From a virus (taxonomy: Duplodnaviria; Heunggongvirae; Uroviricota; Caudoviricetes): DNA of 9,341 bases. The position numbers were made by a program, and so were the translations under genes. Shown here piece after piece: positions 8,357 through 9,341 of the stretch. Position 1 is the stretch's first letter; the number at the start of each line of letters is the position of its first letter. The DNA lies in the IMG/VR virus record IMGVR_UViG_2913147268_000001, positions 1-9,341 of that record. One strand, 5' to 3'. Below the pieces are notes generated by a model. That model was given only the letters and a program-made list of their open reading frames with translations. It had not been told where the DNA came from and made no database searches.

Positions 8357-8558
8357 GGCACTGAACAGCCGATCGTAACCGCTGAATGCATCCGCCTGCA
8401 GGATACCCCGGAAGGGACGAAGGTGTTGTACCGGATGTTTTCCCTGCCTGTCTGGTGAGTAGGCGAACCAGACCGCCGGTGGCTCTGATGAGCCCGCATT
8501 CCGGTCATCCCGGACATACGTCCAGATGCGTCCTGTTTTTGCCTTTTTTCTGCCCGGT
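8357..8558 (-). mobile_element. tnpC: IS66-family transposase (TnpC) internal fragment
   Basis: Minus-strand translation ...PGRKKAKTGRIWTYVRDDRNAGSEPPAVWFAYSPDRQGKHPVQHLRPFRGILQADAFSGYDRLF matches the conserved core of IS66-family TnpC; it runs directly into the J fragment at 8356. Confidence 0.75.
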
Positions 8559-8850
8559 GTGTTGCCCGGAGTGTGGCAGTGAGCTGGATTATCTGGGTGA
8601 AGTCAGTGCTGAGCAGCTGGAACTGGTGAGTAGCGCCCTGAAAGTGATCCGCACTGTTCGGGTAAAAAAAGCCTGTACAAAATGTGACTGTATAGTTGAA
8701 GCGCCAGCGCCGTCCCGCCCGATAGAGCGCGGCATCGCGGGCTCCGGATTACTTGCCCGCGTGTTAACGGGAAAATACTGCGAACACCTGCCACTGTATC
8801 GTCAGAGTGAAATCTTTGCCCGACAGGGTGCCGAACTGAGCCGTGCATTA
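8559..8850 (+). mobile_element. tnpC: IS66-family transposase (TnpC) zinc-finger region fragment
   Basis: Plus-strand translation CPECGSELDYLGEVSAEQLELVSSALKVIRTVRVKKACTKCDCIVEAPAPSRPIERGIAGSGLLARVLTGKYCEHLPLYRQSEIFARQGAELSRA matches IS66 TnpC; opposite strand to the flanking tnpC pieces. Confidence 0.8.
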
Positions 8851-9095
8851 CGACGCAGTTTTTCAGAACGGGTACCGAACAGCATCCGGCGCAGTTTTTC
8901 TATCTGAGCCCGCAGATGTTCTATTTCCCGTTCATCTTCTTCGATCTTTTCTTCGGCACGTGTCAGTGCAGAGCGCAGGAAGGCTTCCGTCTCTTCAACC
9001 AGACTCAGTTGCTGGTCTTTCTGACGGAGGGCTTCAGCCTGCTCAGAGAGCAACCTTTCCAGCTCTGCGATGCGAATGAGGTATTTCTGACTCAT
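8851..9095 (-). mobile_element. tnpC: IS66-family transposase (TnpC) N-terminal fragment (aa 1-~80)
   Basis: ATG at 9093-9095 (minus). MSQKYLIRIAELERLLSEQAEALRQKDQQLSLVEETEAFLRSALTRAEEKIEEDEREIEHLRAQIEKLRRMLFGTRSEKLRR is the leucine-zipper N-terminus of IS66 TnpC; homology ends near 8851. Confidence 0.8.
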
Positions 9096-9125
9096 GACCG
9101 TTTTTATAATGCGGTCAGGAGTTTT

Positions 9126-9341
9126 TTACAACATTGTCAGTGAGTTACGGCTGGATGTTTTTGGCTGACGCCAGTCCAGCTTATCGAGGAGCATTGCCAG
9201 TTGCGAGCGGGTAATGGATACCTTGCCGTCACGTACCGCAGGCCAGATAAACTGGCCTTCCTCCAGGCGTTTGGTGAACAGGCACAGACCATCAGCATCA
9301 GCCCAAAGAGTAAGCGTAAACTGACCGCCGTATGTAGCCAT
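9126..9341 (-). mobile_element. tnpB: IS66-family accessory gene (tnpB/orf2) 3' portion, cut by window edge
   Basis: Minus-strand translation ...LWADADGLCLFTKRLEEGQFIWPAVRDGKVSITRSQLAMLLDKLDWRQPKTSSRNSLTML matches the IS66 TnpB C-terminus. Stop at 9126-9128, about 30 nt upstream of the tnpC ATG, which is the native tnpB-tnpC arrangement. Confidence 0.8.

Follow-up and report, generated by a model that had tools for sequence, protein, structure and literature searches.

The window, by which we mean the whole 9,341-nt stretch of DNA analysed here, closes at its right-hand end with three pieces of IS66-family sequence in -,+,- orientation (A, B and C; Table 1), as revealed by alignment to an E. 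coli locus with an ISEc23-like element (NZ_CP124374; hereafter L001). Piece C, which lies furthest to the right, matches the C-terminal half of TnpB_IS66 together with LZ_Tnp_IS66, the leucine-zipper start of TnpC; piece B matches zf-IS66 (E = 1e-12) and positions 1–40 of the 284 in DDE_Tnp_IS66; and piece A matches positions 82–142 of that same Pfam model. Matches to the NCBIfam model transpos_IS66 fall under its cut-off because the proteins are partial, and a TnpC DDE transposase with both zf-IS66 and DDE_Tnp_IS66 is present as fragments only. The alignment bears out the -,+,- layout proposed in the initial annotation, at nearly the coordinates given there, and the Pfam and NCBIfam matches do the same for its family and domain labels. 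Compared with L001, the window lacks the 171 nt that separate C from B and the 117 nt that separate B from A; neither of these missing sections is found elsewhere in the 9.3-kb window. At the A/B and B/C junctions the pieces overlap by 1 nt only, and we see no IS ends at either.

The three pieces do not make up an element: a collinear, one-strand tnpA-tnpB-tnpC series is not seen, with tnpA absent, tnpB reduced to its last 60 codons and the pieces of tnpC non-collinear. Nor are the genes bracketed by paired GTAAGCG terminal inverted repeats, one end only being present (9310–9341), and no element boundary with flanking target DNA lies within the window. That the stretch holds no intact element, as had been stated, is therefore literally true; the accompanying statement that it holds no terminal inverted repeats is not, as 9310–9341 is the first 32 nt of the left end of ISEc23, identical at every position (100%) to L003 9178..9147 and starting at the terminal base of GTAAGCG. 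These same 32 nt had been counted in a minus-strand tnpB/tnpC piece running from 9341 down to 8851, of which the strand and the gene content stand but the right-hand limit does not, homology to tnpB stopping at 9309. The ISEc23 end adjoins tnpB at mid-gene and faces away from the genes. In a separate part of the window (3812–3823, within the L/K tail gene segment) there is an empty target site that ISEc23 occupies in some ST131 genomes; the copy found in L003 sits at this site and is flanked by the 8-bp target duplication GTATTTTC.

Table 1. Features of the window, with strand, length and closest correspondence.
Feature	Window position	Strand	Length	Correspondence or content
J upstream region and J codons 1–255	2..979	-		100% to L007 1–978
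J 3' part and lom 5' part	980..2682	+	1703 nt	PXXR01000012.1
Tail fibre gene piece	2683–3174			Matches real genomes 100%, bar the doubled stretch
Inovirus-Gp2-family gene, diverged paralogue	5559–5761
IS4 transposase piece	5762–6022			99.6%
IS1 fragment	6023–6156	-		L005 3343..3210
IS1 fragment	6157–6315	-		L005 3446..3288
J allele, second bubble branch	6514..6767	+	254 nt
yeeU antitoxin gene piece	about 6924–7160			98.7%
lom, second occurrence	7161–7622			Continues the lom of the 980–2682 segment
J fragment	7623..8102	-	480 nt	PXXR01000024.1
Tail tip gene J fragment	8103..8356	-	254 nt	End at 8356 is the junction with piece A
Piece A	8357..8559	-	203 nt	tnpC DDE core
Piece A, alignment	8356–8560			L001 4001–4205, same strand (+), 100%
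Piece B	8560..8850	+	291 nt	tnpC zf-IS66 region and start of DDE domain
Piece B, alignment	8560–8850			L001 4613–4323, inverted, 99.7%
Piece C	8851..9309	-	459 nt	tnpB 3' end, intergenic spacer, tnpC 5' end
Piece C, alignment	8850–9309			L001 4785–5244, same strand (+), 100%
tnpC 5' end in piece C	9095 down to 8851	-	81 codons
tnpB 3' end in piece C	9126–9309	-	60 codons and stop
ISEc23 left terminal inverted repeat	9310..9341	+	first 32 nt	Reads inward, away from tnpB

The parentage of the pieces was examined in an alignment of three sequences: ISEc23 (from L003), an IS66-family relative about 88% identical to it that we term V1 (from L002), and the L001 element, a hybrid of both. Piece C is 100% identical to ISEc23 (in each of L003, L002 and L001). 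For pieces B and A, identity to ISEc23 falls to 93% and 84%; both are 99.7–100% identical to V1, with B also matching (at 100%) the tnpC of NU14-type and ST131-type genomes. Judged by these identities, the pieces come from two different elements—C from ISEc23, A and B from the V1 relative—and this, together with the absent 171 and 117 nt, speaks against the initial view of them as parts of a single broken element. In L001 and L002, V1 itself takes the form of tnpC pseudogenes that have been interrupted. The L001 copy (3933–5833) is a natural hybrid, being ISEc23 to about tnpC codon 135 and V1 beyond this, and is interrupted by another IS66-family tnpC; it is the outcome of real recombination between IS66 copies.

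Local alignments to fetched loci divide the whole 9.3-kb window into about 21 segments of 134–1703 nt, joined without spacer. Where a segment has a close match, it is 97–100% identical to an E. coli genome, and a single ST131 strain accounts for many of these matches; the content of the segments includes J, lom, tail fibre, L and K sequences of two lambdoid prophages, pieces of IS1, IS4 and IS66, and pieces of an island with genes for a yeeU antitoxin and a member of the inovirus-Gp2 family. ST131 strain 2/0, in its complete genome, has the prophage at ~1.53 Mb, IS4 at ~3.44 Mb and the island at ~5.02–5.04 Mb; loci lying megabases apart in this strain thus adjoin in the window, in mixed orientation and with no IS ends where they meet.

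At the left-hand end, the 255-aa ‘J N-terminal’ ORF (1–768) ends in a TAG created by window base 1. This base, the last of the stop codon, belongs to the preceding segment, and drafts in which the sequence continues into an N gap (TAN) list the same truncated J product: the ORF is an artefact of annotation rather than a J pseudogene. The two copies of lom differ from each other, with one stopping exactly at the ISEc12 insertion point of ST131 genomes and the other crossing the site uninterrupted; both forms of lom, interrupted and intact, would seem to exist in the source. In addition, the presence of two J alleles means that there are two related lambdoid prophages in the source strain, or else that the source is a mixed population.

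True neighbours among the segments share an end overlap of fixed length, 56 nt, in both IS1 and lom. For IS1, positions 6023–6078 repeat 6260–6315 exactly, with the two neighbours placed in swapped order; for lom, 2627–2682 is the reverse complement of 7567–7622. The J alleles provide a further instance of this length: 8103–8356 and the reverse complement of 6514–6767 cover the same stretch of J at about 96% identity and agree fully over exactly the first and the last 56 nt (8103–8158 and 8301–8356), all of the differences (10 of 254 positions) falling in the section between, to give a layout of 56 + 142 + 56. Allelic segments that are alike at their ends and differ inside are what the two arms of a de Bruijn graph bubble look like when its nodes overlap by 56 nt, and we infer a k of about 57 for the assembly. 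One doubled stretch, a tandem repeat in the tail fibre gene piece (2903–2953 = 2954–3004), is 51 nt in length and not 56. Real genomes have a single copy (441 nt vs 492 nt across 2683–3174), and the doubling may be either a real 17-codon tandem duplication or the product of contigs overlapping by another length (51 nt).

The limits of the IS66 pieces can be viewed in the same light. ISEc23 and V1 have only two long runs (52 nt) in common, bordered by variant columns 778 and 1124 of the IS66 alignment; piece C spans columns 722 to 1180, and each of its ends lies past one of these two columns by exactly 56 nt. A V1 source copy with slightly longer shared runs would give precisely this node. In the columns lying just outside the ends of A and B (1352, 1644, 1761 and 1965, the first two of which flank piece B) the IS66 copies differ, as is expected for nodes common to two near-identical copies. 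Deriving the A and B ends from ISEc23 and V1 alone was only partly successful; given the references used, they are accounted for only if the source genome had one more IS66 copy, a mosaic.

Several segments exist independently as stand-alone contigs in public assemblies. Piece A is identical end to end, in reverse complement, to a 203-nt NCBI contig (LRWS01000036.1) that is present in at least 20 samples, and is also the terminal block following an N gap in JANWRH010000150.1. The segments at 980–2682 and 7623–8102 are likewise identical end to end to contigs of 1703 and 480 nt (Table 1), both from one assembly (GCA_004120975.1), and the window keeps their accession order; the numbering, from contig 12 to contig 24, is compatible with the segment count of the window in one tentative tally, which takes contigs of <200 nt (134, 159 and 165 nt) to have been left out of the deposited set, and the 51-nt doubling to be the meeting point of two contigs. 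The draft scaffold L007 opens with a block that equals positions 2–979 and stops at an N gap, and the last 1703 nt of that same scaffold are 980–2682. On the right-hand side, draft contigs from independent assemblies (L014–L018, L021) begin exactly at window position 9309, and at least nine other contigs end 242–244 nt into tnpC, 1–2 nt from 8851, a shift to be expected were the overlap slightly smaller.

Partial proteins were also predicted for each segment as if it were a contig, and looked up by exact sequence in NCBI. The 67-aa product of piece A is on record as ‘IS66 family transposase, partial’, and those of piece C (a 60-aa TnpB and an 81/82-aa TnpC), three from J (159, 54 and 417 aa) and one from IS1 (53 aa) are all present as ‘partial’ entries. 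No product of a stand-alone piece B contig was found among the eight exact variants sought in the protein collection; identity to an independent contig is seen for A, 980–2682 and 7623–8102, and not for B.

The junctions of the IS66 stretch occur in none of 5426 complete E. coli genomes, and in none of the same 5426 is at least 80% of either the window or the IS66 stretch covered at one place; no phage or plasmid record reaches 80% of either. The junction 30-mers tested are absent from GTDB (species representatives), JGI metagenome and IMG/VR collections, and ORFs that span junctions are absent among about 15 billion proteins. Chimeric ORFs do run across junctions of the window (e.g. 9126–9341 and 8802–9095), and the window itself ends at the ATG of one such ORF, of 71 aa, which is absent from public collections. 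This end point, along with the stop codon at the left-hand end that makes use of the base of a preceding segment, suggests that gene calling came after the joining.

The 56-nt overlaps, the bubble form of the J alleles, the identity of segments to public contigs, the megabases that separate neighbours in a real genome and the absence of the junctions from the genomes and collections searched together lead us to view the window as a series of small contigs from the short-read de Bruijn assembly of an E. coli draft genome, set one directly after another with no spacers (probability about 0.93). The small contigs would represent repeated DNA left unresolved by the assembler—IS66-family, IS1, IS4 and the tail genes of two prophages—with each ending where the repeat copies begin to diverge, and each in arbitrary orientation. 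The -,+,- ‘broken IS66’ would then consist of four contigs in succession, namely A, B and C, and one for the left end of ISEc23, of which only the beginning is present (9310 onwards). The missing 117 and 171 nt would be other nodes of the graph, either placed elsewhere or dropped, and the joining could have been done by the depositor, by a scaffolder or by the input handling of the scan. The three IS66 pieces are not one element shattered or inverted in a genome, but derive from at least two IS66-family elements; and since the junctions are contig boundaries, the simple fact of a -,+,- order says nothing about the genome. The same holds for 8356/8357, where the tnpC core had been read as running straight into J: this is a contig end, not a fusion.

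An alternative for the right-hand end only is a real nested insertion, of a second ISEc23 into tnpB at 9309/9310. The terminus of the IS, GTAAGCG, does begin exactly at 9310, and insertions of one IS66-family element into another occur in L001 and L002. A multi-copy IS node in a graph likewise begins at the IS terminus, however, so a break at exactly this position arises without any nested insertion; moreover, the draft contigs that begin at 9309 (see above) do so without one, and no complete genome has the 9309/9310 junction in one piece. We regard a nested insertion as very unlikely; 9310–9341 opens the following contig, which the window end truncates.

Less probable again, and in our estimate extremely unlikely, is that the stretch is a real remnant: one IS66 element that underwent an internal inversion with flanking deletions, through illegitimate recombination or replication template switching, and then became fused to a J pseudogene. 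The sequence does literally contain the -,+,- arrangement, IS66 copies do recombine (as in the ISEc23/V1 hybrid of L001), and a short near-repeat is present at the A/B junction. Such a history would nevertheless have to place about 20 junctions in 9.3 kb of DNA whose matched segments are still 97–100% identical to living strains. It offers no biological cause for 56-nt shared ends or for a bubble form, and has to contend with pieces that equal stand-alone contigs, with C deriving from a different element to A and B, and with junctions of 1-nt overlap that are found in 0 of the 5426 genomes.

The near-repeat calls for separate comment. The near-direct repeat initially reported at 8551–8577 is real to the extent that TGCCCGG exists twice, at 8551–8557 and 8563–8569; one copy is native to A and the other to B, and the motif occurs five times in the window as against 2.1 expected, with at least five occurrences in 15 of 200 shuffles, so the count is due to chance. 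Template switching at TGCCCGG was rejected on these two grounds and on the 1-nt overlap. A simple inversion was also rejected, as 117 and 171 nt are missing.

As slight as that of a real remnant is the probability of an artefact of some other origin, be it amplification or ligation chimeras in one long accurate read, or wrong joins made by a scaffolder or gap-closer. Inverted joins with small local deletions resemble amplification chimeras, and related pieces do lie near one another in the window. Random breakpoints would not hit the contig ends of unrelated public assemblies, however, and chimeras would leave neither 56-nt shared ends nor bubble-shaped pairs of alleles. Amplification or ligation chimeras and joins at restriction sites were rejected, with CATG present in one junction only and the breakpoints coinciding with public contig ends; a de Bruijn path switch at shared k-mers was set aside, there being no shared k-mer at the junctions. 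Least probable of all is that the window is one genuinely continuous molecule, its twenty or so prophage, IS and island fragments having been shattered and rejoined in a chromothripsis-like bacterial event.

If the window is indeed a run of joined contigs, every junction in it is a contig boundary, and the truncated J, the IS1 and IS66 ‘fragments’, the doubled 56-nt stretches and the chimeric ORFs are all to be understood as such. The practical value of the observation is that of a quality-control warning, with no biological claim remaining; other windows from the same source are probably affected likewise. The remedy is either to cut windows inside single contigs or to mark the contig ends.

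Nothing in the underlying strain is out of the ordinary: it is an E. coli in which ISEc23, an IS66-family relative of it, IS1 and IS4 occur alongside two related lambdoid prophages. ISEc23 is a member of the IS66 family with the gene order tnpA-tnpB-tnpC, ends that begin GTAAGCG and an 8-bp target duplication. Both piece C and the end at 9310–9341 are 100% identical to annotated copies, but together they amount to just 459 + 32 nt of the ~2.5 kb of ISEc23, lacking tnpA, the greater part of tnpC and the right end, and the end piece that is present is misplaced and misoriented relative to tnpB. For V1 in real genomes, A and B have the same orientation and lie 117 nt apart, whereas B is inverted in the window. 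In overall form the likeness is to de Bruijn assemblies fragmented by repeats, in which the same branch-point ends, fixed overlap, bubble ends, arbitrary orientation and small IS and prophage contigs are seen. The window departs from these in two respects: assemblies usually keep their contigs separate or spaced by Ns (as in L007 and L023), whereas here the contigs butt against each other without a spacer; and such assemblies have one k-derived overlap, whereas the window has a single 51-nt doubling besides those of 56 nt.
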